From NCBI GenBank assembly GCA_047651235.1, contig CP178758.1, positions 1,830,001 to 1,862,000 of the forward strand: a DNA stretch of 32,000 bases, read 5' to 3'. A program made the position numbers and the translations under genes. Source of the stretch: Candidatus Electrothrix yaqonensis (lineage in GTDB: Bacteria > Desulfobacterota > Desulfobulbia > Desulfobulbales > Desulfobulbaceae). Of this stretch, positions 169 to 19,190 are shown piece after piece. Every line of letters starts with the position of its first letter. The stretch's first letter is position 1. The notes below the pieces were generated by a model, which did not search any database, was not told the DNA's origin, and worked only from the letters and a program-made list of their open reading frames with translations.

Positions 169-195
169 TTGACTTGGCGTTTAAAGTTTTATACT
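169..195 (+). promoter_or_regulatory. Candidate sigma70-type promoter upstream of the RNA repeat array
   Basis: TTGACT (169-174), 15-nt spacer, TATACT (190-195), preceded by a T-run (161-168). The spacer is shorter than the 17-nt optimum. The string tttttNtcttgac recurs at the second promoter candidate (1551-1563). Confidence 0.3.
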
Positions 196-307
196 CTTGT
201 ATAAGAAAGTTGATTACTGCTGTTTCCTTCTGAATTGCAAGAGAAAGAGAGGAGAAAATTTGCGGTGCGGCTTTCGTAAAAAGTTTGTCAGTCGTATACA
301 GAAACAA

Positions 308-526
308 CATTCATAATTATGGCAGCGCTTATTCAGTAAGCAGGTGCTGTGCTTTCCGGTCGGAAACGGAAAGCTGATAAAGCCACAACCGCCGCGAGGC
401 GGTGTCGGAAAACTTCGGGTCTCCGGAAAGGAGACGGCCGGGTTGCCTGCTTTTAGTCAGATGTACCGGGAGGTAAGTTATGAAGTCGAAGCTCCTTAAA
501 ACGGTCTGTAACCATACAGTCCTTTT
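308..526 (+). ncRNA. Structured RNA unit 1 (riboswitch-like or sRNA-like, class unassigned)
   Basis: Closing helix AAGCAGG (338-344) / CCTGCTT (446-452). Hairpin A 351-358/367-374. Hairpin B ACCGCC-GCGA-GGCGGT (388-403, GNRA loop). Hairpin C GTCTCC-GGAAA-GGAGAC (419-435). Then GGGAGG (468-473) and ATG (480-482). Then hairpin GGTCTGTA-ACCA-TACAGTCC (503-522) followed by TTTT (523-526). GNRA loops exist only in + strand sense. Confidence 0.6.
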
Positions 527-544
527 ACCTTTCACAAACACGAA

Positions 545-766
545 CATTCATAATTATGGCAGTGCTTATTATTCAGTAAGCAGGTGCTGTGCTTTCCGGT
601 CGGAAACGGAAAGCTGATAAAGCCACAATCGTCGCGAGGCGATGTCGGAAAACTTCGGGTCTCCGGAAAGGAGACGGCCGGGTTGCCTGCTTTTAGTCAA
701 ATGTACCGGGAGGTAAGTTATGAAGTCGAAGCTCCTTAAAACGGTCTGTAACCATACAGTCCTTTT
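545..766 (+). ncRNA. Structured RNA unit 2
   Basis: Same architecture, core 578-692. Hairpin B is ATCGTC-GCGA-GGCGAT (628-643). Relative to unit 1, one C-G pair has become T-A (629:642) and one has become a T:G wobble (632:639). ATG 720-722. Hairpin plus T-run 743-766. Confidence 0.6.
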
Positions 767-784
767 ACCTTTCACAAACACGAA

Positions 785-1003
785 CATTCATAATTATGGC
801 AGCGCTTATTCAGTAAGCAGGTGCTGTGCTTTCCGGTCAGAAACGGAAAGTTGATAAAGCCACAACCGCTGCGAGGCGGTGTCGGAAAACTTCGGGTCTC
901 CGGAAAGGAGACGGCCGGGTTGCCTGCTTTTAGTCAGATGTACCGGGAGGTAAGTTATGAAGTCGAAGCTCCTTAAAACGGTCTGTAACTATACAGTCCT
1001 TTT
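785..1003 (+). ncRNA. Structured RNA unit 3
   Basis: Core 815-929. The closing pair of hairpin A changes from G-C to G:T (828:851). Hairpin B has a C-G to T:G change (870:875). The other changes fall in loops (GTCGGAAA to GTCAGAAA; ACCA to ACTA). ATG 957-959. Hairpin plus T-run 980-1003. Confidence 0.6.
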
Positions 1004-1021
1004 ACCTTTCACAAACACGAA

Positions 1022-1194
1022 CATTCATAATTATGGCAGCGCTTATTCAGTAAGCAGGTGCTGTGCTTTCCGGTCGGACACGGAAAGCTGATAAAGCCAC
1101 AATCGTCGTGAGGCGATGTCGGAAAACTTCGGGTCTCCCAAAGGAGACGGCCGGGTTGCCTGCTTTTAGTCAAATCTGTACCGGGAGGTAAGTT
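1022..1194 (+). ncRNA. Structured RNA unit 4 (3' part replaced by unique sequence)
   Basis: Core 1052-1165. Hairpin B is ATCGTC-GTGA-GGCGAT (1102-1117): the loop is GTGA, still GNRA, and the stem carries the same compensated pair as unit 2. The hairpin C stem is kept while its loop changes (GGAAA to CAAA). GGGAGG then ATG at 1195. Confidence 0.55.
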
Positions 1195-1422
1195 ATGAAA
1201 TCGAAGTTCCCCAGAAGCGGCTTGCAGCTGTCTGTTTTCTTCAGCTGCGCCAGCAGTTCAGCTGGTCGCCGCCACTCTTCTCCTTCTGTTCGGAAAAAAC
1301 ACAAAATATTTACGGATAGTATCGGCTCCAAGTGTCATCGATCAGGTGCAGTTTTAGCTCTGTCTCCAGATTTCAAAGAGGGACAGTTCGACGATACTGA
1401 AAAACATCATTCAACCTGCTAA
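1195..1422 (+). CDS. Hypothetical 75-aa ORF starting at the conserved SD/ATG of RNA unit 4 (doubtful)
   Basis: GGGAGG lies 7 nt upstream of the ATG. The product has no recognisable motif and odd composition. It is the only ORF in 788-1640. It may be noncoding. Confidence 0.2.
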   Translation: MKSKFPRSGLQLSVFFSCASSSAGRRHSSPSVRKKHKIFTDSIGSKCHRSGAVLALSPDFKEGQFDDTEKHHSTC

Positions 1423-1558
1423 AAAGATATTTTTGACACTTTATTTCTCTAATGGGCAACATTTGTAGATTTTTATCCTATATTTTACGTTTTATATTTT
1501 ATATTTTTGGCAAACAATGACATAATATAAAAAAAGTAGCTTAAAAACAATTTTTCTC

Positions 1559-1587
1559 TTGACACAAGAAGCAATACGATTTACGCT
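1559..1587 (+). promoter_or_regulatory. Candidate sigma70-type promoter of the small-secreted-protein operon
   Basis: TTGACA (1559-1564), 17-nt spacer, TACGCT (1582-1587). It sits at the end of a very AT-rich tract (1423-1558) with repeated tatatttta strings (UP-element-like) and about 78 nt upstream of the ATG at 1665. Confidence 0.4.
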
Positions 1588-1664
1588 TATCAAGCAATAC
1601 TCGAAAGCAAAAAATAGATATCACGCTTCTTAAGAATATTTTGCTTCGACTGGAGGTTTTGAGA

Positions 1665-2078
1665 ATGGATAGATATTTTACAATAATACTACTGATGTTA
1701 TTTCTTTGTACTGCGTCTGTGGCTATTGGAAAAGAAAATAAACAATTTTCCGGTGCTTTTTTGATTGACCAAACTGTAAAAGCAAACGATTTTACCGGGA
1801 AATCTGTTAGTGATGCCGGTGTTGCCCAAGGCGGAAATGTTGTTACAGGAATGGCGATTGCAGGAGTAGGTCAGAACGCAATTCTTGACGGTGACCTTGA
1901 ATTGAAAATGAAAAAAGGCGAGCGCAACACCCAGGGCCTGAACGTTGTTTCCGGCAAAGTAACGGCGCTTGTCGGTCAGATCGGCGTGGTTGATGAGGAT
2001 GCCGCACTGAAATCTGTAGGCAATGAGAAGTCTGCGCAGGGCATAAACGTGGTCAACGCCTGCGAGGGATGTCAGTAA
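1665..2078 (+). CDS. Secreted QG-x-NV repeat protein, copy 0 (137 aa; chimeric: divergent low-GC 5' part, 3' part identical to the array)
   Basis: GGAGG (1652-1656) lies 8 nt before the ATG at 1665; the track start at 1641 is a TTG. Hydrophobic signal peptide MDRYFTIILLMLFLCTASVAIG. From nt 1917 onward it is identical to the downstream copies. Confidence 0.8.
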   Translation: MDRYFTIILLMLFLCTASVAIGKENKQFSGAFLIDQTVKANDFTGKSVSDAGVAQGGNVVTGMAIAGVGQNAILDGDLELKMKKGERNTQGLNVVSGKVTALVGQIGVVDEDAALKSVGNEKSAQGINVVNACEGCQ

Positions 2079-2093
2079 TCAGGAAGTCGAAAA

Positions 2094-2151
2094 CGCCGGA
2101 CGGTGCGTGTCCGGCGGTACAGGATACAACGGAAGCGGTGGGGACCGCTTC
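2094..2151 (+). other. Intercistronic double hairpin, present in all six 111-bp spacers (also at +537, +1074, +1611, +2148, +2685)
   Basis: Hairpin CGCCGGAC-GGTGCGT-GTCCGGCG (2094-2116) and hairpin GAAGCGGT-GGGG-ACCGCTTC (2132-2151). Neither is followed by a T-run. TACAAT (2163-2168) and GGAG follow. Confidence 0.6.
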
Positions 2152-2189
2152 ATTAACTACACTACAATTGTACTACGGAGACTGAAGAA

Positions 2190-2615
2190 ATGAAAATGAA
2201 ATTTATAGCAGCAGCATTCGCACTGGCACTGGCAGTACCCGCAGCATCCATGGCCAACGGCGGCAGGCATCATCAGTTCGGCGGTCAGGCTGCCGGTATC
2301 GTGCAGGGTCTTGAAACCGGTGAGGATTTTTCGGCAGATTCAATAGGCGACGAGAAAGTCACTCAGGGCGGCAACGTGGTCAAGGGTAATGTGACCAAAG
2401 GTATCCTGCAGCTCGCCGATGTGGGCGGTGATCTTGATCTGACCATGGTGGGCGGCGAGCGCAACACCCAGGGCCTGAACGTTGTTTCCGGCAAAGTAAC
2501 GGCGCTTGTCGGTCAGATCGGCGTGGTTGATGAGGATGCCGCACTGAAATCTGTAGGCAATGAGAAGTCTGCGCAGGGCATAAACGTGGTCAACGCCTGC
2601 GAGGGATGTCAGTAA
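2190..2615 (+). CDS. Secreted QG-x-NV repeat protein, array copy 1 (141 aa)
   Basis: GGAG lies 9 nt before the ATG. Signal peptide MKMKFIAAAFALALAVPAASMA. QG-x-NVV occurs at residues 59-64, 94-99 and 129-134, exactly 35 residues apart. C-terminus is NACEGCQ. Confidence 0.85.
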   Translation: MKMKFIAAAFALALAVPAASMANGGRHHQFGGQAAGIVQGLETGEDFSADSIGDEKVTQGGNVVKGNVTKGILQLADVGGDLDLTMVGGERNTQGLNVVSGKVTALVGQIGVVDEDAALKSVGNEKSAQGINVVNACEGCQ

Positions 2616-2726
2616 TCAGGAAGTCGAAAACGCCGGACGGTGCGTGTCCGGCGGTACAGGATACAACGGAAGCGGTGGGGACCGCTTCATTAACTACACT
2701 ACAATTGTACTACGGAGACTGAAGAA

Positions 2727-3152
2727 ATGAAAATGAAATTTATAGCAGCAGCATTCGCACTGGCACTGGCAGTACCCGCAGCATCCATGGCCAACGGCGG
2801 CAGGCATCATCAGTTCGGCGGTCAGGCTGCCGGTATCGTGCAGGGTCTTGAAACCGGTGAGGATTTTTCGGCAGATTCAATAGGCGACGAGAAAGTCACT
2901 CAGGGCGGCAACGTGGTCAAGGGTAATGTGACCAAAGGTATCCTGCAGCTCGCCGATGTGGGCGGTGATCTTGATCTGACCATGGTGGGCGGCGAGCGCA
3001 ACACCCAGGGCCTGAACGTTGTTTCCGGCAAAGTAACGGCGCTTGTCGGTCAGATCGGCGTGGTTGATGAGGATGCCGCACTGAAATCTGTAGGCAATGA
3101 GAAGTCTGCGCAGGGCATAAACGTGGTCAACGCCTGCGAGGGATGTCAGTAA
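2727..3152 (+). CDS. Secreted QG-x-NV repeat protein, array copy 2 (identical)
   Basis: Translation and flanks identical to 2190-2615. Confidence 0.85.
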   Translation: MKMKFIAAAFALALAVPAASMANGGRHHQFGGQAAGIVQGLETGEDFSADSIGDEKVTQGGNVVKGNVTKGILQLADVGGDLDLTMVGGERNTQGLNVVSGKVTALVGQIGVVDEDAALKSVGNEKSAQGINVVNACEGCQ

Positions 3153-3263
3153 TCAGGAAGTCGAAAACGCCGGACGGTGCGTGTCCGGCGGTACAGGATA
3201 CAACGGAAGCGGTGGGGACCGCTTCATTAACTACACTACAATTGTACTACGGAGACTGAAGAA

Positions 3264-3689
3264 ATGAAAATGAAATTTATAGCAGCAGCATTCGCACTGG
3301 CACTGGCAGTACCCGCAGCATCCATGGCCAACGGCGGCAGGCATCATCAGTTCGGCGGTCAGGCTGCCGGTATCGTGCAGGGTCTTGAAACCGGTGAGGA
3401 TTTTTCGGCAGATTCAATAGGCGACGAGAAAGTCACTCAGGGCGGCAACGTGGTCAAGGGTAATGTGACCAAAGGTATCCTGCAGCTCGCCGATGTGGGC
3501 GGTGATCTTGATCTGACCATGGTGGGCGGCGAGCGCAACACCCAGGGCCTGAACGTTGTTTCCGGCAAAGTAACGGCGCTTGTCGGTCAGATCGGCGTGG
3601 TTGATGAGGATGCCGCACTGAAATCTGTAGGCAATGAGAAGTCTGCGCAGGGCATAAACGTGGTCAACGCCTGCGAGGGATGTCAGTAA
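3264..3689 (+). CDS. Secreted QG-x-NV repeat protein, array copy 3 (identical)
   Basis: Translation and flanks identical to 2190-2615. Confidence 0.85.
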   Translation: MKMKFIAAAFALALAVPAASMANGGRHHQFGGQAAGIVQGLETGEDFSADSIGDEKVTQGGNVVKGNVTKGILQLADVGGDLDLTMVGGERNTQGLNVVSGKVTALVGQIGVVDEDAALKSVGNEKSAQGINVVNACEGCQ

Positions 3690-3800
3690 TCAGGAAGTCG
3701 AAAACGCCGGACGGTGCGTGTCCGGCGGTACAGGATACAACGGAAGCGGTGGGGACCGCTTCATTAACTACACTACAATTGTACTACGGAGACTGAAGAA

Positions 3801-4226
3801 ATGAAAATGAAATTTATAGCAGCAGCATTCGCACTGGCACTGGCAGTACCCGCAGCATCCATGGCCAACGGCGGCAGGCATCATCAGTTCGGCGGTCAGG
3901 CTGCCGGTATCGTGCAGGGTCTTGAAACCGGTGAGGATTTTTCGGCAGATTCAATAGGCGACGAGAAAGTCACTCAGGGCGGCAACGTGGTCAAGGGTAA
4001 TGTGACCAAAGGTATCCTGCAGCTCGCCGATGTGGGCGGTGATCTTGATCTGACCATGGTGGGCGGCGAGCGCAACACCCAGGGCCTGAACGTTGTTTCC
4101 GGCAAAGTAACGGCGCTTGTCGGTCAGATCGGCGTGGTTGATGAGGATGCCGCACTGAAATCTGTAGGCAATGAGAAGTCTGCGCAGGGCATAAACGTGG
4201 TCAACGCCTGCGAGGGATGTCAGTAA
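3801..4226 (+). CDS. Secreted QG-x-NV repeat protein, array copy 4 (identical)
   Basis: Translation and flanks identical to 2190-2615. Confidence 0.85.
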   Translation: MKMKFIAAAFALALAVPAASMANGGRHHQFGGQAAGIVQGLETGEDFSADSIGDEKVTQGGNVVKGNVTKGILQLADVGGDLDLTMVGGERNTQGLNVVSGKVTALVGQIGVVDEDAALKSVGNEKSAQGINVVNACEGCQ

Positions 4227-4337
4227 TCAGGAAGTCGAAAACGCCGGACGGTGCGTGTCCGGCGGTACAGGATACAACGGAAGCGGTGGGGACCGCTTCA
4301 TTAACTACACTACAATTGTACTACGGAGACTGAAGAA

Positions 4338-4763
4338 ATGAAAATGAAATTTATAGCAGCAGCATTCGCACTGGCACTGGCAGTACCCGCAGCATCCATG
4401 GCCAACGGCGGCAGGCATCATCAGTTCGGCGGTCAGGCTGCCGGTATCGTGCAGGGTCTTGAAACCGGTGAGGATTTTTCGGCAGATTCAATAGGCGACG
4501 AGAAAGTCACTCAGGGCGGCAACGTGGTCAAGGGTAATGTGACCAAAGGTATCCTGCAGCTCGCCGATGTGGGCGGTGATCTTGATCTGACCATGGTGGG
4601 CGGCGAGCGCAACACCCAGGGCCTGAACGTTGTTTCCGGCAAAGTAACGGCGCTTGTCGGTCAGATCGGCGTGGTTGATGAGGATGCCGCACTGAAATCT
4701 GTAGGCAATGAGAAGTCTGCGCAGGGCATAAACGTGGTCAACGCCTGCGAGGGATGTCAGTAA
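4338..4763 (+). CDS. Secreted QG-x-NV repeat protein, array copy 5 (identical)
   Basis: Translation and flanks identical to 2190-2615. Confidence 0.85.
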   Translation: MKMKFIAAAFALALAVPAASMANGGRHHQFGGQAAGIVQGLETGEDFSADSIGDEKVTQGGNVVKGNVTKGILQLADVGGDLDLTMVGGERNTQGLNVVSGKVTALVGQIGVVDEDAALKSVGNEKSAQGINVVNACEGCQ

Positions 4764-4874
4764 TCAGGAAGTCGAAAACGCCGGACGGTGCGTGTCCGGC
4801 GGTACAGGATACAACGGAAGCGGTGGGGACCGCTTCATTAACTACACTACAATTGTACTACGGAGACTGAAGAA

Positions 4875-5300
4875 ATGAAAATGAAATTTATAGCAGCAGC
4901 ATTCGCACTGGCACTGGCAGTACCCGCAGCATCCATGGCCAACGGCGGCAGGCATCATCAGTTCGGCGGTCAGGCTGCCGGTATCGTGCAGGGTCTTGAA
5001 ACCGGTGAGGATTTTTCGGCAGATTCAATAGGCGACGAGAAAGTCACTCAGGGCGGCAACGTGGTCAAGGGTAATGTGACCAAAGGTATCCTGCAGCTCG
5101 CCGATGTGGGCGGTGATCTTGATCTGACCATGGTGGGCGGCGAGCGCAACACCCAGGGCCTGAACGTTGTTTCCGGCAAAGTAACGGCGCTTGTCGGTCA
5201 GATCGGCGTGGTTGATGAGGATGCCGCACTGAAATCTGTAGGCAATGAGAAGTCTGCGCAGGGCATAAACGTGGTCAACGCCTGCGAGGGATGTCAGTAA
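4875..5300 (+). CDS. Secreted QG-x-NV repeat protein, array copy 6 (identical; last unit)
   Basis: Translation identical to 2190-2615. Downstream sequence diverges immediately after the stop codon. Confidence 0.85.
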   Translation: MKMKFIAAAFALALAVPAASMANGGRHHQFGGQAAGIVQGLETGEDFSADSIGDEKVTQGGNVVKGNVTKGILQLADVGGDLDLTMVGGERNTQGLNVVSGKVTALVGQIGVVDEDAALKSVGNEKSAQGINVVNACEGCQ

Positions 5301-5503
5301 GTTTGCAGGTCAGGGATATTTGAGGTACAGTATACTTGACTCCTAAGTGGAAAAGCCGCCTGCCGCTGTCGGTAAGGATTTGATATTGCGTCTAATTTTT
5401 TGTTTACGGACTCGGCAGGTAAACTTTCCCGCTCGATATGTTAAGCAGGTTACCTGTTATATATTTTATTCAGATAATAATCTGTTGCTGAAGGAGGAGA
5501 ACA

Positions 5504-5941
5504 ATGGTAAAAAAAATATTTTTTACAATAGGCACCGCTGCGATCTTTTTGTTGCCGTCAGCGGCTATGTCACATGAACGAGGTAATCTCTTTGATCAGT
5601 TTAACAATGCTGATGTTGCGGCATTTCAGGGAGTATTTCTGGACCAGGCCATGACAGTGACGTCGTCGAATGATACCAATTCTGTTCAGGGACTGAATGT
5701 GATCAAGGGATTTGCTGCCGGTGGCAAAGTGGTACAAAAGGCTATAGTTGACGCAGACTTATCGTTTGATATGTCTGGCGGGAACGATGCTGTTCAGGGG
5801 ATCAATGTCTATCAGGGCCATCTCAGGAGGGGGAAAATCTCTCAGCTGGCGATTGTTGACGGTAAGGTCACGATGGCATCAAGCGGTAATGATGGTGGAA
5901 TTCAGGGGATTAATGTGATCACCGGCCCTCAGTGCAACTGA
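5504..5941 (+). CDS. Divergent paralog of the QG-x-NV repeat protein (145 aa)
   Basis: AGGAGG lies before the ATG. Signal peptide MVKKIFFTIGTAAIFLLPSAAMS. QG-[LI]-NV at residues 62, 98 and 134 (36-residue spacing). C-terminus is GPQCN. Confidence 0.8.
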   Translation: MVKKIFFTIGTAAIFLLPSAAMSHERGNLFDQFNNADVAAFQGVFLDQAMTVTSSNDTNSVQGLNVIKGFAAGGKVVQKAIVDADLSFDMSGGNDAVQGINVYQGHLRRGKISQLAIVDGKVTMASSGNDGGIQGINVITGPQCN

Positions 5942-6033
5942 TCTTTGTCCTGTCTGGTTTCCGGATTCAATTTTTTCCCTGTCGGGAGATCTCAATAGCC
6001 AATTATGGTGCTTTTTCAGAGGGAGGAGTTGTT

Positions 6034-6381
6034 ATGAAAAGAAGTCTTATATTATCCGTTGTGTTATGCTGTTCTGTCCTGGCGGTTCAGGCGGCGTGTG
6101 CGTCTGAAGATGGAATGAAGATAAAAAAAGCAGACATTCCAAATGCAAACAGGACAGGGACTCTGGCATCAGTAATGAAGAAGGCCAAAGGGATTCAGGA
6201 TGATCAAGGACAAATTAACGAGATAACCGGCGGCACTAAGCTGACTGACGAAAAAGGAAACATCGTTGTTGTTGATGACCTAGACGAACCCACATGTGTT
6301 TTTTACGGCAATTACAACGAAGGTGACGCTAACGTCGATCAATATTTCAATATTGATAAGCTTGAGATTCAATGCAATTAA
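6034..6381 (+). CDS. Small secreted protein (115 aa), distant or minor member of the same locus
   Basis: GGGAGGAG (6021-6028) lies before the ATG at 6034; the track start at 5932 adds a non-signal-like extension. Signal peptide MKRSLILSVVLCCSVLAVQAACA. One QGQINEITGG motif. The C-terminus EIQCN shares QCN with the 5504 paralog. Confidence 0.7.
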   Translation: MKRSLILSVVLCCSVLAVQAACASEDGMKIKKADIPNANRTGTLASVMKKAKGIQDDQGQINEITGGTKLTDEKGNIVVVDDLDEPTCVFYGNYNEGDANVDQYFNIDKLEIQCN

Positions 6382-6596
6382 GGACAAGACAACGGGATAA
6401 TCTGCTGTCCTGTTTGTTTCGTTACCTTCTCTGAAGTTTTTTCTGATATTTTTGTTGTATTTTTTATCCTTTCCCGGTTAGAATCAGCAACAAAGAATAT
6501 GAGAATAAACTTATGAGGAAGGGTGTCTTCGGATAACTGTCTGACTCCTCCTTTCTCTTTCTTTCCCCCAAGTTGCTGCCATAGCATGCCTGCCTT

Positions 6597-6623
6597 AAAT
6601 GCCTTTTGTCTGGGCATTTTTTA
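6597..6623 (+). terminator. Candidate intrinsic terminator ending the small-protein operon
   Basis: AAATGCC (6597-6603), 9-nt loop, GGCATTT (6613-6619), then TTTTAT. The stem is short and AT-rich. Confidence 0.45.
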
Positions 6624-6727
6624 TGCGTTTAACAGGCTATTATGTCGTTTCCGCATAGTAGGCGGTAGCTTGGGTTACCTTCCCTGAAAAACACGAGCTG
6701 CTTTTCAGCGGCAAAAATGCAAAATAA

Positions 6728-8266
6728 ATGAAGCGGTTACTCCGATCAGCCTGTCTGGGTGCTGTCCTGGCATGTATAAATACGGGATGCACAAATGTTG
6801 ATTCCGTAATATCAAATATTAACAGAGAAACGCCGTATTCTGCCTCAACAAATCTCACCGAAACGTTGAAATGTATAGGTATGGTGATCAATGAATCCGA
6901 ATCACGCCCTATTCTCTTTCTGGTAGATGATTTTTTTGACGGCACTGTTCCTATTGTAACAGATGCTCAAGCTATCCTGACAAGAGCCTACAGAAGTAAC
7001 GGCCCACTGGCTGACGGGGGAAAATATGATTTTGAGGCTGTCATCAAGCGGACAGTCTCCAGTCAGAAAATTGTCCTTCCGTATGCACTGCCCACCGGTG
7101 TAATACAGCATGAAGACATATATGGAAGGCTGAAGCCGGAGTACTTACAGGATCTTCTTAAAATATATAATGTCTCCGGTGTCGTCAGAGTGAAAGGAGT
7201 ATTCACCCAGAATGATTCCGCCGACTATATAAACAACGGATCCGGCAACAGTATCGAGCAGGAGGGAAAACGTGGTCGGACCGAGATAGAATACGGTCTC
7301 TCTGAAGCGTCCAAAAGTGTATCTCTGGCAATCTATCTGGGAAGTCCCTTGAATAATACTCTGATTGCCGCCACAACATTGACACTCAACATGCATACAA
7401 TGTCTGATGAGTTTTCAGTTGGTTTCGGATACGGGGAAGGTTCGATGAGTTTTGTCAACGAATCAAAAATTAAGGAAGGGCTGCATGGTTCGCAGAGAAC
7501 TCTGATTGAAGCTGCCGCAATGTGGATACTGCGCGGTCTGTACAGCAAACTTGATTTTTCTCAATGCGTTGCAGGGGGAGACGGAGAAGGCGGTGCTGCT
7601 ACACCTGATGCGACGATTGCGGCAAATGAAAGATGGCTGTCGCTTGATCCGGGAATGAAAATAAAATATCTGAAATTGATGCTCAGAGAGTTGGAGTACT
7701 ACAACGGTTCGATCAGCGACAGATATGATATCCCTCTGCAGAAAGCAATTGCCGCGTATGAAGCTGACAGCGGTATAATGATACCACATACAAAACATAA
7801 TCTGGGTGATCTGTTTATCTCACTATACGGTGCTGTTGAGATTGAAGAAATTGACAGAATGGCAAAGCATTCGGAAGTTTTCTTCGGAAATTGGGGCAGG
7901 AAACCGAAGAAAAGCACTGAGAAGGAGAATGCTGAACAGAGAGCTGTTAATCAGGATACTCCTGAAGATACTACGACTGGTCAGCAAAAAGATTCTGAGC
8001 AGAAGCCCATCAGGCAGGATTCTTCTAAAAAGGAGACCGCTAATCAGAAAAATCAGAAGCAGGCGCCCGCAGCTTCTGCGCAGAGGTCTGTTAATCAGGG
8101 GAACCCCGGAAATACAACTGGTAGGGAGAAGCAACAGATCCCTGAACAGAGGAAACCTGCTGAACGGGAGAGTACTGAAAAAAAACCGGTTGAAAGGAGG
8201 ATAGGGAGAAATACCACTGCCGGTTTGGTTATTATAAACGGTAAACGTCCTGTTAATTATAAATAG
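6728..8266 (+). CDS. Lipoprotein: CsgG-like(?) N-terminal domain + PG_binding_1-like domain + disordered K/Q/E-rich tail (512 aa)
   Basis: Signal with lipobox VLAC (MKRLLRSACLGAVLAC). My by-eye alignment to E. coli CsgG: ILFLVDDFFDGT versus KIFVSVYNIQDETG; VVRVKGVFTQNDS versus IMVEGSIIGYESN; SVSLAIYLGSPLNNTLIAATTLT versus QIAVNLRVVNVSTGEILSSVNTS. The PG-binding pattern is KYLKLMLRELEYYNGSISDRYDIPLQKAIAAYEADSGI. The last 130 or so residues are low complexity. Confidence 0.75.
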   Translation: MKRLLRSACLGAVLACINTGCTNVDSVISNINRETPYSASTNLTETLKCIGMVINESESRPILFLVDDFFDGTVPIVTDAQAILTRAYRSNGPLADGGKYDFEAVIKRTVSSQKIVLPYALPTGVIQHEDIYGRLKPEYLQDLLKIYNVSGVVRVKGVFTQNDSADYINNGSGNSIEQEGKRGRTEIEYGLSEASKSVSLAIYLGSPLNNTLIAATTLTLNMHTMSDEFSVGFGYGEGSMSFVNESKIKEGLHGSQRTLIEAAAMWILRGLYSKLDFSQCVAGGDGEGGAATPDATIAANERWLSLDPGMKIKYLKLMLRELEYYNGSISDRYDIPLQKAIAAYEADSGIMIPHTKHNLGDLFISLYGAVEIEEIDRMAKHSEVFFGNWGRKPKKSTEKENAEQRAVNQDTPEDTTTGQQKDSEQKPIRQDSSKKETANQKNQKQAPAASAQRSVNQGNPGNTTGREKQQIPEQRKPAERESTEKKPVERRIGRNTTAGLVIINGKRPVNYK

Positions 8267-8415: not shown

Positions 8416-9384
8416 CTAATACCGCAACCCGACCCGATCCCGTACCAGCTCCAGGGTTTCGGTCGCCTTTGCCCGCGCTTTATCCGCTCCCTTCCGCAGC
8501 ACCTCCCGCAAATACTCCTGATTCTGCAACAGCTCTTTCTTTTTTGCTCTGGCATCGGCAAAATAATCCCGGATCAGTTCAAAGAGATCCTGTTTCAGAT
8601 AGCCGTAGGCCGCCCCCCCATTGACATAGAGATCCTGCACCTCTGCCATTTTTTCTGCAGAGGCAAAGAGCTTGAGCAGAGCATACAGATTGCATTTATC
8701 CGGGTCTTTCGGCTCTTCCACCGGGGTGGAATCGGTCTGCACCGCCATCACCTGTTTACGCAGAGGTTTATCCTCCAGAAAGATCGGAATGGTATTGCCG
8801 TAGGATTTAGACATTTTCTGGCCGTCAAGGCCCGGAACAATGGCTGTGGCTTCGCTGATTGCCGGTTCCGGCACTACAAAGGTTTCACCGAAGGTGTTGT
8901 TGAACTTGATGGCAATATCGCGGGCCACCTCCAGATGCTGTTTTTGATCCTTGCCCACCGGCACGACCTCTGCCTGATAGAGCAGGATATCCGCCGCCAT
9001 GAGCACCGGATAGGCAAACAGACCGTGACTGGCCGCAATACCCTTGGCCACTTTATCCTTATAGGAATGGCAGCGCTCCAGCAGGCCCATGGGCGTCATA
9101 GTGGACAGTATCCAGGACAGTTCACAGACCTCCGGCACATCTGACTGGACCCAGAAGGTGCAGCGCTCCGGATCAAGCCCTAGGGCCAGGAAATCCGCAG
9201 CCGCCTCAAGGGTGCCGGTGGAGAGTTTTTCCCGGTCATGCACGGAGGTCAGCGCGTGGAGATCCACAATAAAGACATAGAGATTCGCTGTCTCCATATT
9301 GGAGATCATCGTCTTCATCATGCCGAAATAATTGCCGATATGAAGCTGTCCTGAAGGCTGGATGCCGGAGAGTATACGTTGCAT
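8416..9384 (-). CDS. trpS: Tryptophan--tRNA ligase
   Basis: 322 aa. Class I signatures are HIGN (GQLHIGNYFG) and KMSKS (GQKMSKSYGN). Overall TrpRS-like sequence. Confidence 0.95.
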   Translation of the reverse strand: MQRILSGIQPSGQLHIGNYFGMMKTMISNMETANLYVFIVDLHALTSVHDREKLSTGTLEAAADFLALGLDPERCTFWVQSDVPEVCELSWILSTMTPMGLLERCHSYKDKVAKGIAASHGLFAYPVLMAADILLYQAEVVPVGKDQKQHLEVARDIAIKFNNTFGETFVVPEPAISEATAIVPGLDGQKMSKSYGNTIPIFLEDKPLRKQVMAVQTDSTPVEEPKDPDKCNLYALLKLFASAEKMAEVQDLYVNGGAAYGYLKQDLFELIRDYFADARAKKKELLQNQEYLREVLRKGADKARAKATETLELVRDRVGLRY

Positions 9385-12280: not shown

Positions 12281-13177
12281 ATGAAAATGAAATGCATCTC
12301 GGCATCTTTACTGCTCTTTTTACTCTTTTGGTTTGTTCCGACTGTTCAGGCGGCCGATTATACGAACAGTCTCGGTATGCAGTTCAACAATATCCCTGCC
12401 GGAACCTTCTTTATGGGGAGCTGTCTCCCTGAAGGAGCTGTCTGTCCCGGCAGGGGAAAAGCGGATAAAGATGCCCATAAGGGAGAGGCGCCCAAGCACG
12501 AAGTGCGGATTAGCAGAGGATTTCAGATAGGTGTTTATGAAGTCACTTTAGGAGAGTTTAAACAATATCTTGCCTGCCTGCCCGCCGGAGAGCGGGCTGC
12601 AGTGGCAACAGACAGATTCAGCAGATTTAATACACACGGGGATAATGCGGCTGTGGTGGTTGTTTCCTGGGAGGATGTACAGGGATTTATCCGCTGGCTG
12701 AACAAAAAAGAGGGTGGCCGTGCCTACCGGCTGCCCACCGAGGCGGAATGGGAGTATGCTGCCAGGGCGGGAACAGAGACGGTGTATTTCTGGGGCGATG
12801 AACCGGAGAAGGCTCCGGAATATGCCTGGCTTAACATGGAAGGAGCAGACCTGCGCAAATGGTTCCAGAAAGGGCCTTCGGGGAAAAAAGAAGATTTTCC
12901 TCATCCAGTCGGTCTGAAGAAACCCAATCCCTGGGGCTTATACGATATAGCTGGCAATGTCTGGGAGTGGGTGGATGACTGGTACAGCGAGGACTATTAC
13001 CGCATCAGTCCCAAGGTTGATCCGACCGGTCCGGCAACCGGTCGTGTCCGTTGTTTTCGGGGCGGCAGCTGGTACGGGTCGGCAAGGAATTTGCGCTCCG
13101 CTGTCCGCGGGCTGAATACCCCAGATTACCTCAGCGATTCTTTGGGATTCCGTCTGGTGCGGCAGGTCGGACGATAA
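12281..13177 (+). CDS. Secreted formylglycine-generating-enzyme (SUMF1/FGE-sulfatase) domain protein
   Basis: Signal peptide ...VPTVQA. YRLPTEAEWEYAARAG, GNVWEWVDDWY and RGGSW are hallmark strings of the FGE-sulfatase domain. AGGAG lies before the ATG. Confidence 0.85.
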   Translation: MKMKCISASLLLFLLFWFVPTVQAADYTNSLGMQFNNIPAGTFFMGSCLPEGAVCPGRGKADKDAHKGEAPKHEVRISRGFQIGVYEVTLGEFKQYLACLPAGERAAVATDRFSRFNTHGDNAAVVVVSWEDVQGFIRWLNKKEGGRAYRLPTEAEWEYAARAGTETVYFWGDEPEKAPEYAWLNMEGADLRKWFQKGPSGKKEDFPHPVGLKKPNPWGLYDIAGNVWEWVDDWYSEDYYRISPKVDPTGPATGRVRCFRGGSWYGSARNLRSAVRGLNTPDYLSDSLGFRLVRQVGR

Positions 13178-13243
13178 TTTTTCTCAGTTTCTCTGCAAAC
13201 AGGGCCGGTTCGGACCGGTTTGCAGCGGGTGGATATGATACCC

Positions 13244-14029
13244 TCATCTTTTTTCCCTGCTGAAGCGTTCTTTGAAAATCAGATAGAAAAAAAACAGGTT
13301 GCCGATCAGATATCTCTTCCACAATCGTTTCGGTTCGATGAGCAGTCTGGCCAGCCATTCCATGCCGTTGTCTGTCATCCAGCTAGGGCCTCGGCGCAAT
13401 TCCCCGGAAACATAGTCGAACAGGGCACCGGCGGAAAAACCGACATTGACGTTCAGCCTGTCCCAATTTTCCTTGAGCCACTTTTCCTGCAGCGGCATAC
13501 CGAACCCGACAATCAGAACATTGGCCTTTGAGGCATTGATCAGGCGGATAATTTCCTCATTCTCCGGCGAATCCGGGGATTTGTCAAAATATCCGTGCCG
13601 GGTGGTGATCTGCAGAGCAGGAAAACGTTCTTTCAGTTTCAGCGCAGCTTTGTCGGCGATACCCGGTTTTGCCCCGAGGAAAAAAAAGCTGATGCCTTTC
13701 TCTTCCGCCAGTTCTGCCAGGCTCCACATCGAATCGGCCGGGGTGCTGCGCCCCGGTATGTGATGACCCAGAATTCTGGCGCCCAGGACAACACCGGCTC
13801 CGTCACAGAAGACCAGCCCGGCCTGATTGAGAAAATCCCGCAGCCAGGGGTTATGATACACCATATTGTAGCAGTGCGTATTGACATTCAGGACCAGAGA
13901 CTTGCGTTGTCGGGCAACTACATCGGCGATGTACTGGCAGATTCCTGCTTCCCCTAACAGATGGACCTGCACACCGAGGATAGGGACACTGTCGAGATGG
14001 TCAAAAGACTGTATGGATTGGGTTGTCAT
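13244..14029 (-). CDS. WecB/TagA/CpsF-family glycosyltransferase
   Basis: DGAGVVLGARILG and ...GPSWMTDNGMEWLARLLIEPKRLWKRYLIGN are typical of this family. Start set at the ATG at 14029 (MTTQSIQ); the alternative at 14092 would overlap the upstream gene. Confidence 0.8.
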   Translation of the reverse strand: MTTQSIQSFDHLDSVPILGVQVHLLGEAGICQYIADVVARQRKSLVLNVNTHCYNMVYHNPWLRDFLNQAGLVFCDGAGVVLGARILGHHIPGRSTPADSMWSLAELAEEKGISFFFLGAKPGIADKAALKLKERFPALQITTRHGYFDKSPDSPENEEIIRLINASKANVLIVGFGMPLQEKWLKENWDRLNVNVGFSAGALFDYVSGELRRGPSWMTDNGMEWLARLLIEPKRLWKRYLIGNLFFFYLIFKERFSREKR

Positions 14030-14054
14030 GGTACGGTCATCAGATAAACAGGAC

Positions 14055-15212
14055 TTACTGAACAAGTTCAGTGTACAGGCGCATGTAGGCATCTGTCATT
14101 GTTTTTGCAGAGTACTTTTCCGCTATGGTTGCAAAGGCATTGGCCGCCATCCTGTCTGCTTCTTCGGGAAGGCGCAGCAGCCGGAGCATTGCGGAAGCCA
14201 GCTTTTCCGCATTGGCCGGAGGGACCAGCAGGCCGTTTTCCTCATCTTGGATGATCCGGCCTACCCCGCCGACTTCACTTGCAATGACCGGGAGTTGCGC
14301 GGACATGGCTTCCAGCAGGGCCATGGGTGTGCCTTCCAGCAGCGAAGGCAGAACAAAAATATCCAAGGCAGAATAGAATGCAGCGATATTCGGACGGAAT
14401 CCGGCAAAGATCACTGCGTCCGAGATACCGAGTTCTACAGCGTATTGCCGCATTTCGTCCCCCTGAAACCCGTCACCCACAAGAATAAAATGTGCTTCAG
14501 GGAAAACTTTCAGCACCTGCGCAGCTGCAGCAAGAAAGTATTTCTGGCCTTTTTCCGGGCTGATCCTGCCGAATACGCCGATCAGCGGCGTTCCCGGCGC
14601 GATCTTGAATTCTTCGCGAATTGTGTCCCTTGCCTGCTGATCTTTCCGGAATTCCTGCATATCGATCCCGTTGATGATCACCTGCATTTTTCCGGCCGGG
14701 GTCAGATAGCGGCGCATGAGCTGCCGGACCTCCGGTGAAACCGCGACGATTTTCGGAAAAAAGCGGATGTAAAAAGCATCCAGGGATTCAAAGCAGGTGA
14801 CCAGAAAATCACTGCGGATCCAGTTGTGATTTGTGGTGATGAGCCGGGCCGGAGTGCCCATTGCAGAGAGCAGGCCGTAGAGCCGTCCTTTCATTTCATG
14901 GCAGTGGACAACGGCAATGTTCTCCCGGCGGATGAGTTCCCTGATCTGCCGCACCGCTTCCGGATCGATCCATCTCCGGCAGGTGATGACATGCCCCTGA
15001 GCGTCTTTTGCCTGGGCAGCATTGATCAGTTCCATGTTCGGATAGCCTTCCGCTTGGAGCAGGGCTATAGACGGGGTGAAGCGGCTGTGGTCCGTAGCGC
15101 CGATCAGATTCAGGATAATGCGTTCAGCACCGTACAGACCGCGGCTGCTGATCAGATGGAGTACGTTCAGAGGCTGCTGCTCTACGGTATTCTGTGTATT
15201 CTGCTTCGTCAT
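14055..15212 (-). CDS. Glycosyltransferase family 4 (GT-B, group 1)
   Basis: 385 aa. N-terminal LHLISSRGLYGAERI and C-terminal ...LPSLLEGTPMALLEAMSAQLPVIAS...ENGLLV (the E-x7-E region of GT4). Confidence 0.85.
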   Translation of the reverse strand: MTKQNTQNTVEQQPLNVLHLISSRGLYGAERIILNLIGATDHSRFTPSIALLQAEGYPNMELINAAQAKDAQGHVITCRRWIDPEAVRQIRELIRRENIAVVHCHEMKGRLYGLLSAMGTPARLITTNHNWIRSDFLVTCFESLDAFYIRFFPKIVAVSPEVRQLMRRYLTPAGKMQVIINGIDMQEFRKDQQARDTIREEFKIAPGTPLIGVFGRISPEKGQKYFLAAAAQVLKVFPEAHFILVGDGFQGDEMRQYAVELGISDAVIFAGFRPNIAAFYSALDIFVLPSLLEGTPMALLEAMSAQLPVIASEVGGVGRIIQDEENGLLVPPANAEKLASAMLRLLRLPEEADRMAANAFATIAEKYSAKTMTDAYMRLYTELVQ

Positions 15213-15229
15213 TGTTTTTTGTTTACGGT

Positions 15230-16384
15230 TTACTCTGCTTCCGCCCTGCCTGTGCTGCGGAGCGCCAGCCGGACTGCGTCCGCATAGCCTTTTACCGCTG
15301 GTGCGAGGTCATTTTTCCGGGCAAGTATTTTTCCGGCCTCGGCCATACGTTGGCGCATCTCTGGATCACGGGCCATTTTTTCCATTGCTGCAGCCATTTC
15401 ATCCGTATTTTCCGGATCAACAATGATGCCGTTTTCCCTGACCATATCGTTGGCTGCCCCGGCATAGCGGGAACAGATGACCGGAAGACCGCAGGCCACG
15501 GCTTCAGCCACCACCAGGCCGAAAACATCCAGCCGTGTGGGCAGGACAAAGACATCATGCCGGACCATTTCTGCGGGCACAGATTCATACGGGACACTGC
15601 CCGGAAAAAGAACAGCATGCTCACAGCCCAGCTCCTTTGCCAGCGCCTTGAGCGCTTCCAGATCAACACCTTTGCCGATTAGGGTCAGCAGGGCGTCAGG
15701 GACAGATTCCAGCAGCCGGGCAAAGGCCCGGATCAGTAGGTCAATACCCTTTCTCGGCTTTATCTCACCAACATAGACGAACTTGACCGGGTCGTTATCC
15801 TGCCGTGGCGGTTTTTCCGGTACGCCGACTGCAGCCAGATGCTCCTGAATATGGGCGCTCAGGCTGCTGAGAAACTCTTTTGATTTGGGGTAACCGAAGT
15901 TGTCGCTGAAGTGATCCAGCGTGTCTGTACAGGAGCCGATCAGGGCATGGGCAAAAAAAAGCAGAAATCTGCGGTTGCTCCTTCTGAGCAGGCCCATACG
16001 TTTGTCATGGTGATAGGTCATATCTGACCAGATCACATAACTCCGCCGGTTCAACCGCGCCCAGAGGGCACCGATAATGCAGTCAAAACGGAATTCCAGA
16101 CTGACCACCACATCCGGTCGGATCTTCCTTAGCCTCTGCAGCAGCCCGGAAGGATAGCGAATCAGCAGACGCTCTCCGAACATCTGATTGGTTTTCCACA
16201 AAAAAAACGGCTTTAAATAATAGGCGCGAAAGGGCAGGTCCTCAGGAGGGTGCCATTCTCTGCCGACTTCCTTGGGCATGGTATAGAGCACCGTGATATC
16301 AAATTCACGGGCCAGTTCACGCAGCAGGGGCACCCGATAAGGATCGTACCAGGGGCACAGGATCAGGACGGTCTTTTTTTTCAT
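15230..16384 (-). CDS. Glycosyltransferase family 4 (GT-B, group 1)
   Basis: ...FVLPTRLDVFGLVVAEAVACGLPVICS...ENGIIV is the GT4 signature. Start set at the ATG at 16384 (MKKKTVLIL); a GTG at 16402 is the alternative. Confidence 0.8.
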   Translation of the reverse strand: MKKKTVLILCPWYDPYRVPLLRELAREFDITVLYTMPKEVGREWHPPEDLPFRAYYLKPFFLWKTNQMFGERLLIRYPSGLLQRLRKIRPDVVVSLEFRFDCIIGALWARLNRRSYVIWSDMTYHHDKRMGLLRRSNRRFLLFFAHALIGSCTDTLDHFSDNFGYPKSKEFLSSLSAHIQEHLAAVGVPEKPPRQDNDPVKFVYVGEIKPRKGIDLLIRAFARLLESVPDALLTLIGKGVDLEALKALAKELGCEHAVLFPGSVPYESVPAEMVRHDVFVLPTRLDVFGLVVAEAVACGLPVICSRYAGAANDMVRENGIIVDPENTDEMAAAMEKMARDPEMRQRMAEAGKILARKNDLAPAVKGYADAVRLALRSTGRAEAE

Positions 16385-16412
16385 CCGGTTATCTGGTTGC
16401 ACGATTTGCCGG

Positions 16413-17132
16413 TCAGAATTGACGTCGGCGGAAAAAATTTTTTATTCTGCGGGCAGGCTGGAGCAGGATACGCATCACCCATGTTGCACGCCACCCTGTA
16501 TTGTGCAGATCACTGTGTGAAGCACGGTCCCGGATGACTTGCGGTTCAGCAATCAGGGTCAGGGTCTCCGGATATTTTCTCCGGAAGACGTTGAACGCAC
16601 CATCGACATCTATTGGTCTGTGCTGCTCCAGTTCCTCAAGATGCTCAATGAGAGGAGCAAACGTCGGGCGGCTGACAGCGTATGCATGTGTGCATCTGAG
16701 AGAATCGGGCAGCGGGCGCATTTCGACGTGTTCGGTTTTCCGTGAAGCAAGTGTACTGCCTTCAACATGCGTATAGCCGAGGTAGGCGAAGTTCCATGAT
16801 GCGTCCTGCAGTTGCTGCTGCATAGCTGGCCAGAGTTGTTCAAATATACTGACAAATTCCACATCATCTTCTATGACAAGTACGTTTGAAAGGTCGAGTT
16901 CAGCAGCCTTTCTGAGGATGGAGAGATGACTGAGGAAACACCCCCGTACACCCGGAGAAGAAAACCCTGCTGCCTCGGTCGGCTTGACTGCCGGAAACAG
17001 CTCGACTTTTCCCGGAGTAAAGGAAATCCCGATACGTTGCAGCGCTTCTGTTATTTCCCGGCGACGGTCTATCCGCTCAGGAAGGTTGACAACATAGATT
17101 TTGTCGAAGTAGTTTTCCAATCTGTCATTCAT
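16413..17132 (-). CDS. Glycosyltransferase family 25-like
   Basis: 239 aa. N-terminal FDKIYVVNLPERIDRRREI and GCFLSHLSILRKA, VLVIEDDVEF match the GT25 pattern as I recall it. Confidence 0.7.
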   Translation of the reverse strand: MNDRLENYFDKIYVVNLPERIDRRREITEALQRIGISFTPGKVELFPAVKPTEAAGFSSPGVRGCFLSHLSILRKAAELDLSNVLVIEDDVEFVSIFEQLWPAMQQQLQDASWNFAYLGYTHVEGSTLASRKTEHVEMRPLPDSLRCTHAYAVSRPTFAPLIEHLEELEQHRPIDVDGAFNVFRRKYPETLTLIAEPQVIRDRASHSDLHNTGWRATWVMRILLQPARRIKNFFRRRQF

Positions 17133-17196
17133 GGCAATGTTGAAAATAAATTATTCCAGCTGGTTCTGTATGGTTCTCTATATAACGGCGTACCCG

Positions 17197-17883
17197 TCAG
17201 GACGTTTGCTGTTCAACAGCGGGAGATGGAGATGATTCTTCTGCCGCAAATTTCAGGCCGAAGAGATACCATACCATAATGCTGACGATCACCATCTCTC
17301 CTGCATCTTCGATTAATCCAAATACCTGTCCTCCCCAAGGAATGGCCACGTGAGCTACATCCACGACAACACCGAAAAAAACCAGAGAGCATGCCAGCAG
17401 AAAGATATTATGCGATATTTTCCGTTCATGATTGGTACTGAACAGGTAAGCCCAACCTATAAAGGAAAAGAGCAATACGCCGAACACAGCAGATACAGCA
17501 AGCTCCCCGAAATCCTGTGCCCGCAGGTTGAAGATCCCATGAAAACCGAAATAGTTGACCAGGAATTCCCCGAGTTGTTCATGTACTCTGAAGGAATCGT
17601 CAAGCAGAAAATAGAAAAACAATGCAGCCCAGGAAATATAAACTATTCTTTTTTCTTTGATCGCAATGATGCTCAGCAGGAGGATGATCCACAGTTCTTT
17701 TGTATACTGATAAAATTCCGCATATCCTTTATCCTTTTCTACTGAAAACAGGACACTTTCAAGAATACCTGCCATATAGAAAAGGTGGATCAGTACAAAG
17801 GCAAGATCTGCAGCAAGCAACAGAAACAAGAGTTTGTTCGTATTGTCATCTATGTCGAAATATTGTTTTATTCTCAGCTTCAT
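17197..17883 (-). CDS. Polytopic membrane protein, unknown function (about 6 TM)
   Basis: 228 aa with alternating hydrophobic segments. It lies inside the glycan cluster. No motif recognised. Confidence 0.6.
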   Translation of the reverse strand: MKLRIKQYFDIDDNTNKLLFLLLAADLAFVLIHLFYMAGILESVLFSVEKDKGYAEFYQYTKELWIILLLSIIAIKEKRIVYISWAALFFYFLLDDSFRVHEQLGEFLVNYFGFHGIFNLRAQDFGELAVSAVFGVLLFSFIGWAYLFSTNHERKISHNIFLLACSLVFFGVVVDVAHVAIPWGGQVFGLIEDAGEMVIVSIMVWYLFGLKFAAEESSPSPAVEQQTS

Positions 17884-17979
17884 CGCCTGTCCTTGTTATT
17901 CCGCATCTGCCTATGCGGAGCAGTTCTGTTCAGTTTTGTCGCATTTTGCTTTGACTGCTGCTGTCAGCGGCTGAGAGAT

Positions 17980-19137: not shown

Positions 19138-19190
19138 AATTTGAATTCAACTATTATGTATTCGGCATTACGGGAATACTGCGGAAATTG

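Follow-up and report, generated by a model that had tools for sequence, protein, structure and literature searches.

The described systems closest to the locus reported here are the Fap and curli functional amyloids and the holdfast anchor of Caulobacter. In the last of these, HfaA/HfaB/HfaD, a CsgG-like outer-membrane lipoprotein (HfaB) and small amyloid-like secreted proteins anchor an extracellular structure, the polysaccharide holdfast; the Hfa proteins are not known to be amplified or riboswitch-controlled. The Fap subunit FapC contains three imperfect repeats that form one layer each and carry conserved Asn/Gln residues (PMC12392863), and it ends in a Cys-X-X-Cys motif, with a C-terminal Cys on its partner FapE (PMC3684753). 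Adhesin or curli-type genes are often preceded by riboswitches for cyclic di-GMP (c-di-GMP), tandem copies of which respond more digitally, and a survey of tandem riboswitches recorded 347 doublets and 12 triplets of the c-di-GMP-I class and no quadruplet (PMC9481103). Here we describe a module in a 32,000-nucleotide (nt) stretch of the genome of Candidatus Electrothrix sp. YB6, a cable bacterium (contig CP178758.1, positions 1,830,001 to 1,862,000; hereafter the window). Positions 169-8266 carry four tandem c-di-GMP-I riboswitch units, an amplified set of small secreted repeat-protein genes, a gene for a further small secreted protein, referred to as protein C herein, and a gene for a lipoprotein with a predicted CsgG-like fold. 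An initial annotation, made from the letters of the window alone, had placed the elements of a module in this interval on the + strand, and all of them do lie there in that orientation.

The same annotation had proposed that these elements constitute an undescribed secreted-fiber or matrix module, and our computational analysis largely supports this proposal, as the family, fold and co-occurrence checks that it had suggested came out in its favor. What the analysis shows directly is which genes are present and in what order, the identity of the riboswitches, the copy number, the co-occurrence and the predicted folds. The module is best read as an undescribed curli/Fap-like fiber system that would polymerize in the cell envelope, a reading to which we give slightly better than even credence. 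In the full-text literature we found nothing that ties cable bacteria to a riboswitch, CsgG, curli or amyloid.

By hidden Markov model matching, the repeat family has eight genes at this locus, each encoding a protein of ~140 amino acids (aa): an A-type paralog at 1665-2078, six identical copies of the major, A-type subunit gene, and a B-type paralog at 5504-5941. Nine genes had originally been assigned to a single family; eight belong to it, while the ninth (6034-6381, 115 aa) is protein C, a member of a different secreted family. The assembly bears out the claim of six identical copies, with the 141-aa genes located at 2190-2615 (copy 1 of 6, a 100% match to ACL93V_08695), 2727-3152, 3264-3689, 3801-4226, 4338-4763 and 4875-5300. 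The 141-aa protein bears an apparent Sec signal peptide, removal of which leaves a mature subunit of 119 aa with 19% Gly, 13% Val, 14% Gln plus Asn, no Trp or Tyr, and a net charge of -7. The sequence repeats Gln, Gly and Asn at a strict spacing of 35 residues (Q59/G60/N62, Q94/G95/N97 and Q129/G130/N132), and the Gln and Asn positions show no or almost no variation across 36-41 family members, in agreement with the invariant repeat that had been picked out by eye.

The subunit family is very small. A word-indexed search of 5.8 billion proteins returned seven subunit matches, and a profile run exhaustively over 1.84 billion representatives returned 34 members of the family, all but two of which are 100-148 aa long. 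The subunit family had no match in Pfam or NCBIfam. Identity as a pilin, cytochrome or known adhesin was ruled out, as Pfam and NCBIfam gave no matches. The initial annotation had detected no sequence relation to CsgA or FapC, and neither did we: Pfam Curlin_rpt matched 0 of 36 members at E <= 0.1, hhalign of the family against a manually entered sequence of E. coli CsgA gave a probability of 0.3%, and the subunit profile matched no chain among the PDB sequences, although FapC entries are present in PDB. A genome scan with the subunit alignment yielded no confirmed locus. Distant members (P0072, P0073, P0076 and P0080) come from metagenomes, and one 226-aa protein has approximately six repeats; some distant members have signal peptides unlike those of the cable-bacteria members. 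The contig of P0076 (sample ERR4592245) carries genes of 144, 103 and 369 aa, a size pattern and order matching the module. The subunit family may reach beyond the known cable bacteria.

Using an alignment of 36 sequences, AlphaFold modeled the major subunit with a mean predicted local distance difference test (pLDDT) score of 81.8, and ten-residue blocks over residues 41-130 average 89-98. The predicted structure is a beta-solenoid of stacked 35-residue layers, whose nine strands are arranged as three layers of three, while the segments before residue 36 and after residue 135 are of low confidence and unstructured. Since the ends of the model are unstructured, it has no caps, and subunits could therefore stack end to end into a thin fibril. 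As predicted, the fold fits a fiber subunit.

The likeness to Fap is one of overall design. As in that system, a secreted subunit has three imperfect repeats of ~35-40 residues, predicted to form one cross-beta layer each with conserved Asn/Gln; the major subunit has a Cys-X-X-Cys end (here CEGCQ) and a partner protein has a C-terminal Cys, with both the B-type subunit and protein C ending in Cys-Asn; a major subunit is accompanied by a minor paralog; and FapC is the best solved-structure match of the model, albeit a weak one. The YB6 subunits differ from the Fap subunits in having no detectable sequence similarity to them, and each predicted YB6 layer packs three strands into 35 residues and lacks long linkers, whereas that of FapC is a five-strand Greek key of ~52 residues. 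The YB6 module also lacks a FapF-type barrel, a FapD protease and FapA, and has a CsgG-fold lipoprotein instead. We considered the CxxC motif as a nickel ligand and ruled this out, as the motif is not conserved across the subunit family.

The likeness to curli lies in the lipoprotein, which is predicted to have a CsgG fold whose secondary-structure elements, two long hairpins among them, follow one another as in CsgG, in the presence of major and minor subunit paralogs that are ~30% identical, in Gln/Asn-based repeats, and in the location of curli-related genes behind c-di-GMP riboswitches in some bacteria. Mean identity across genera is 39% among A-type and 51% among B-type orthologs, and that between A-type and B-type is 31%, a level similar to the relationship between CsgA and CsgB. 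Unlike curli, the YB6 subunit has a repeat of 35 residues rather than the ~20 of CsgA, the lipoprotein bears an extra PG_binding_1-like domain, and there is no homolog of CsgE, CsgF or CsgC, protein C being a family of its own.

The lipoprotein (6728-8266, 512 aa, ACL93V_08715) has a lipobox-like NTGC sequence and, in the AlphaFold model, three parts. The N-terminal CsgG-fold domain (residues ~41-281, nt 6848-7570; pLDDT mostly 80-94) is a confident alpha/beta domain in which three strands of 21-24 residues have low-confidence tips, and we take these strands to resemble the transmembrane hairpins of the CsgG structure. A long helix comes after this domain. Using Foldseek, the CsgG-fold domain matched HpaA (E 8.1e-7), FlgT (1e-5) and CsgG (1.4e-4 to 1e-3), all with a probability of 1.0 and a target-normalized template modeling (TM) score of 0.35-0.49, and further matches were LptE, PelC and GNA1162. 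On its modeled structure, the domain belongs to the CsgG-like fold superfamily that comprises CsgG, HpaA, FlgT, LptE, PelC and GNA1162. On the monomer model, the protein may form a pore or just an anchoring ring.

A PG_binding_1-like helical domain follows (residues 293-381, nt 7604-7870). In YB6 the match to PG_binding_1 (PF01471) has an E value of 0.01 and 16.5 bits, under the 23-bit cut-off, and covers the confidently modeled helical domain; in relatives, the domain was detected in 38 of 39 at E <= 0.1, with a best value of 2.2e-5. The match to the fused peptidoglycan-binding domain named in the initial annotation thus extends across the family. The remainder (residues 385-512, nt 7880-8263) is modeled as a disordered low-complexity tail, rich in Gln, Lys, Glu and Pro and with approximate internal repeats (repeat family D7, 7932-8118). 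Orthologs of similar length (519-547 aa) were found in only a few genomes (E. gigas, AUS3 and 'Desulfobulbus sp. TB'), most being 355-434 aa long. The search recovered 40 lipoprotein homologs, all at least 48% identical, and those with an organism name are all from Electrothrix or Electronema, in some cases filed under the older name 'Desulfobulbus sp.'. Like the 141-aa subunit, the lipoprotein has a 100% identical counterpart among the hypothetical proteins recorded for YB6.

Protein C (6034-6381, 115 aa, ACL93V_08705) is a secreted protein outside the repeat family, with two conserved cysteines, one in an EPxCVFYGNYN motif and one at the penultimate position. It had no match in Pfam or NCBIfam and forms its own family. 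Homology of protein C to CsgE, CsgF or CsgC was ruled out, as no Pfam matches were obtained.

To place the module in its genomic setting, loci were gathered via the lipoprotein, by word-indexed search and by a scan of species-representative genomes. The proposed test of co-occurrence gave a consistent answer: subunits and lipoprotein share one locus in 14 of 14 other genomes, which span both cable-bacteria genera and two 'Desulfobulbaceae' metagenome-assembled genomes, and in each the order on a single strand is one or two repeat genes, protein C and the lipoprotein. The flanks of the module vary between genomes (ftsZ and a radical-SAM gene, VWA, DsbA, or trpS), so the module moves as a unit. 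Judged from these loci, it is present in every cable-bacterium genome sampled and almost absent elsewhere. At the locus of Electrothrix sp. GW3-4 (L002, 11182-12162), a gene for an omptin-family outer-membrane protease begins on the final base of the lipoprotein gene; this adjacency was not seen at other loci, and the omptin might process subunits.

Upstream of the subunit genes, the four tandem structured-RNA units of the initial annotation proved to be c-di-GMP-I riboswitches, an identity that it had missed. It had likewise not recognized the host as a cable bacterium, and both identities change the meaning of the finding. The aptamers lie at 372-450 (55.8 bits, E 1.7e-8, a full-length model match), 612-690 (54.0 bits), 849-927 (54.2 bits) and 1086-1163 (55.3 bits); all four cover positions 1-87 of 87 of the Rfam model RF01051 at 54.0-55.8 bits, against a gathering score of 35, with E values of ~1e-8. 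Each belongs to a unit of 237-240 nt that consists of an aptamer and its own downstream platform. Tandem Repeats Finder reported the units as one array at 306-1210, with a period of 237, 3.8 copies and 94% matches (repeat families D5 and D6), and an alignment of the four has a mean column identity of 90%. The aptamers differ by a double change of C-G to U-A, by two G-U wobbles and by a loop that reads GUGA in place of GCGA: the compensatory C-G to U-A change sets the P1a helix of aptamer 2 apart from units 1 and 3, and the altered tetraloop of aptamer 4 is still of the GNRA type. Every substitution thus preserves pairing or loop type. At a ligand-contacting position, G rather than A distinguishes c-di-GMP from cyclic AMP-GMP (c-AMP-GMP) sensing (PMC9481103). 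We infer that this rule falls on RF01051 model position 11, which is G in four of four units (AAAGCC). Sensing of cGAMP was ruled out, as the specificity position is G.

The organization is that of natural tandem c-di-GMP-I riboswitches such as the Bacillus thuringiensis Bc3-5 triple, in which whole aptamer-plus-platform units are serially repeated upstream of a surface-structure gene; Bc3-5 has three units, while YB6 has four and is a cable bacterium. The YB6 units are 92-98% identical to one another, and their duplication is therefore recent. After aptamer 1, a terminator-like hairpin (GGUCUGUA-ACCA-UACAGUCC followed by UUUUACCUUUC) spans 503-533, with equivalents at 743-773 and 980-1010, so that units 1-3 only carry it. 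This hairpin is weak (-7.7 kcal/mol by ViennaRNA), has an A-tract on its 5' side and a U-tract on its 3' side, and was not listed by the terminator scan. In ViennaRNA its stem has a probability of ~1.0 with aptamer P1 (AAGCAGG/CCUGCUU) enforced and 0.35 unconstrained. Folding hints at an OFF switch, favored by only ~2 kcal/mol, and we do not commit to a direction.

A GGGAGG-N6-ATG sequence closes each riboswitch unit (470-483, 710-723 and 947-960), and the last opens a 75-aa open reading frame (ORF), ACL93V_08660, at 1195-1422 after aptamer 4. Pfam holds no match to this ORF, which stands alone in its cluster among ~15 billion proteins, and a terminator-like site at 1217-1231 falls within it; it is probably not real as a conserved gene. 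It may be a leftover gene start once governed by an ancestral single riboswitch. Between the array and the first subunit gene lies an AT-rich spacer (1423-1640; the GC fraction of 1211-1640 is 0.36) with promoter-like sites, TTTATA-17-CATAAT at 1498-1526 from the scan and TTGACA at 1559-1564 by eye. The promoter region named in the initial annotation is thus AT-rich and upstream of the first gene as stated, and the promoter-like sites in it are weak. The promoter-like site that had been placed ahead of the array fared similarly. Its hexamers are present at 169-195 (TTGACT, a 15-nt spacer and TATACT, in sequence of 30% GC; the GC fraction of 1-305 is 0.298), and it is a tentative site read by eye; the consensus promoter scan, which required a spacer of 16-18 nt, did not list it, and promoter-like sites overall show no excess (12 versus 9.5 +/- 3.2 in shuffled sequence). 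A c-di-GMP riboswitch was not detected at any of 13 related loci scanned. The metagenome scan with the subunit alignment returned only four contigs, which are ~1 kb long and have no upstream sequence.

The subunit genes have been amplified as a perfect tandem array of 6.3 units of 537 nt (1917-5300), with 0 mismatches over 3,384 nt (repeat family D1). The first gene of the set (1665-2078, 137 aa, ACL93V_08665) is a chimera: its signal peptide and first layer are divergent, and its 3' half, from 1917 on, belongs to the perfect array and is identical to the major subunit. Downstream of the stop codon of every major-subunit copy, at a spacing of 537 nt, lie two GC-rich 8-bp hairpins read from the sequence, CGCCGGAC/GTCCGGCG and GAAGCGGT/ACCGCTTC (2631-2688 for the first copy), which also occur in metagenomic relatives (L017, L019 and L020) with pair-preserving changes. 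They may confer stability on the mRNA or act as partial terminators, and would in this way set the proportion of subunit to downstream genes. The array is followed by the B-type gene (5504-5941, 145 aa, ACL93V_08700), a minor paralog and candidate nucleator or anchor subunit. Tandem or collapsed major-subunit copies were also found in relatives at 64-75% identity (L017-L019, and L020/L021 with a period of 573).

From these features we infer polymerization and export, what B and C do, that the riboswitches are coupled to the operon, the direction of the switch and the link to the sheath. The YB6 locus would be a version of a four-gene envelope-fiber module on the functional-amyloid design of curli and Fap. 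The A-type protein would form three stacked 35-residue beta-solenoid layers, with the invariant Gln/Asn residues as ladders along the stack. The B-type protein, 31% identical to the A-type and more conserved, would probably serve as minor subunit or nucleator, the part that CsgB plays for CsgA, and protein C may be a small disulfide-type accessory factor. The lipoprotein is most likely an oligomeric outer-membrane ring tethered to the wall, which would either hand unfolded subunits to the surface or anchor the fiber. In YB6 and close relatives the gene for the putative major subunit is amplified in tandem, and in YB6 four serial riboswitches with their own platforms should give high output and a steep, switch-like dependence on c-di-GMP. 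YB6 has abundant non-conductive extracellular sheaths of 'undefined nanofibers', as well as ridges 2-3 times wider than those of other species (PMC12093952), and its nanofiber sheath would be the simplest phenotype to link to the module.

Several observations weigh against this reading. The resemblance of the lipoprotein to CsgG, noticed by eye in the initial annotation, stands at the level of the fold, with a Foldseek probability of 1.0, and fails at the level of sequence, where Pfam CsgG (PF03783) matched 0 of 39 lipoprotein members and hhalign of the family against a manually entered sequence of E. coli CsgG gave a probability of 0.6%. The best fold matches of the lipoprotein, HpaA and FlgT, are not channels, and no equivalent of CsgE, CsgF, CsgC or FapF is recognizable at the module. 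For the subunit model, the FapC amyloid ranks first in a Foldseek search of PDB and is a weak match (E 9.8e-4, probability 0.54, TM 0.16), with the CsgA fibril seventh among generic beta-helices. The module is found in all cable bacteria sampled whereas sheaths are reported for few, a distribution that fits a universal structure better than a sheath. The folding result hints at an OFF switch, which would be unusual for a matrix fiber, and between the last aptamer and the first gene lie ~430 nt and weak promoter-like sites. In addition, the orthologs TAA73823/CAK8720272, TAA73822/CAK8720277 and CDV28_1577/1578 (TAA73823 and TAA73822 being those of Electronema aureum GS) were not found in cable-bacteria full texts or supplements, and no proteome or transcriptome entry for module orthologs was found in the cable-bacteria literature checked.

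If the module does build a fiber, its location has to be weighed. The likelier route leads to the surface, by export through the lipoprotein ring or by anchoring on it. Polymerization in the periplasm is a credible possibility to which we give lesser weight; the subunits would then build, template or coat the ~3-nm strands or protein matrix of the conductive fibers, a ridge scaffold, or the 'core lamella sheet' of the junctions, and the CsgG-fold lipoprotein would be an outer-membrane-to-peptidoglycan anchor or nucleation site and not a pore. The distribution of the module, in every genome sampled and with all named homologs from cable bacteria, is that of the periplasmic fibers, and the fold matches HpaA, FlgT, LptE and PelC are non-channel envelope ring or anchor proteins, in keeping with the wall-binding domain; set against these matches, the long amphipathic hairpins and topology of the lipoprotein resemble the membrane hairpins of CsgG, and c-di-GMP control together with a curli-like gene set is typical of a surface matrix. 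The Raman amide I band of fiber sheaths, at 1665-1672 cm-1, lies in the range typical of beta-sheet, a point in favor of the periplasmic reading. Fiber sheaths also yield fragments of all three aromatic amino acids, whereas the major subunit has no Trp or Tyr. The fiber skeleton is resistant to sodium dodecyl sulfate and splits into strands of 3.1 +/- 0.2 nm, and these strands, the surface layer and the lamella sheet have no gene assigned (PMC11976967); a width of ~3 nm is, however, common to most beta-solenoid fibrils, which makes the size match unspecific. The nickel-organic nanoribbons are embedded in a 'surrounding protein' that awaits identity (PMC13534509), and the wider ridges of YB6 (PMC12093952) could call for more subunit, but a role of the subunit as a metal ligand is unlikely since its CxxC ending is not conserved in the family. 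The narrower proposal that the A- and B-type subunits are the protein of the ~3 nm strands or of the matrix holding the nickel-organic nanoribbons, or else of the junction lamella sheet, and that the lipoprotein nucleates and anchors them under the outer-membrane ridges, seems to us doubtful. Doubtful, too, is that the small proteins are soluble, non-polymerizing beta-helix proteins, for example with a binding function in the periplasm or at the surface, whose adjacency to the lipoprotein reflects a shared non-fiber envelope role. Many of the Foldseek matches are indeed monomeric beta-helices (ice-binding proteins, the SV2 luminal domain and CcmM), and stacking is a reading of a monomer model, but that model predicts three complete layers and no terminal caps, its Gln/Asn ladders and three-repeat design parallel FapC and CsgA, and a major/minor paralog pair, sixfold amplification and attenuator-like hairpins at each copy are the marks of a bulk structural subunit.

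Two further alternatives concern the locus itself. Zero mismatches over 3.4 kb would also be expected from an assembler over-expanding a repeat, in which case the real genome would have one or two copies in place of six; we regard such an assembly artifact as very unlikely. The closed YB6 genome draws on both long and short reads of a clonal culture (PMC12093952), and a short-read assembly from a public run that carries the exact YB6 sequence breaks exactly at the array edge, contig L027 starting at window position 5271. Moreover, three short metagenome contigs (L020, L021 and L028) have ends that overlap by 141 or 55 nt, from which periods of 573 and 537 nt follow, and by their sequences they represent collapsed arrays, from other populations, of identical major-subunit genes in tandem; L028, an independent contig, holds a collapsed 537-nt repeat that is 535/537 identical to the YB6 unit. 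At least two tandem identical units therefore occur in nature. As for the riboswitches, they likely govern the subunit operon, with the caveat of the 430-nt AT-rich spacer and its weak promoter-like sites. It is rather unlikely that the array is not the operon leader and instead governs only the ORF at 1195-1422, or is a separate small or c-di-GMP-binding RNA, with the operon served by its own spacer promoter. That arrangement would account for the GGGAGG-N6-ATG and terminator-like hairpins borne by the units, for the terminator-like site after unit 4 and for the ~430 nt with weak promoter-like sites before the first subunit gene, and the 13 other loci where no c-di-GMP riboswitch was detected show that the module does not need one. 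However, the ORF has no Pfam match and forms a single-member protein cluster, no other gene lies between array and operon, and all are co-directional. Long leaders are common for c-di-GMP riboswitches, and adjacent recent amplifications of sensor and subunit are most simply explained by selection on one expression unit.

Beyond the module, a tryptophanyl-tRNA synthetase gene is convergent to the lipoprotein gene (8416-9384 on the - strand), as it is on the closest long metagenomic contig (L001, 2856-3851 on the - strand); this synteny does not extend to more distant cable bacteria. A polysaccharide-synthesis cluster, mostly on the - strand, occupies 12281-22532 and encodes WecG/TagA-type, three GT4 and one GT25 glycosyltransferases, a Polysacc_synt_3 flippase-like protein, two sulfotransferases and an FGE-sulfatase-domain protein. 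Its content suggests that a sulfated exopolysaccharide is made a few kb from the fiber module, which could matter for sheath formation. The longest ORF in the window (22591-31968, - strand) encodes a non-ribosomal peptide synthetase of 3125 aa with three condensation, adenylation and carrier modules and a thioesterase.

In papers of 2025-2026 the fiber protein candidate is given as not yet identified and the molecular structure of the fiber is described as unresolved, and cable bacteria have several protein-based envelope structures that lack a known gene: the protein that surrounds the nickel-organic conductive core, the ~3 nm strands, the surface layer, the junction lamella and the nanofibers of the YB6 sheath. 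The module described here is a concrete, clonable candidate for such structures, with subunits predicted to be self-stacking and a very high gene dosage in YB6. The four-unit c-di-GMP-I tandem is the first that we found reported and offers a natural test of how far serial riboswitches sharpen a response. If the subunits form the periplasmic fiber, their amplification in YB6 would relate to its 2-3 times wider ridges; and if the fiber reading is true, the module would be a further Gram-negative fiber system, one that combines Fap-like subunits with a wall-tethered CsgG-fold lipoprotein.

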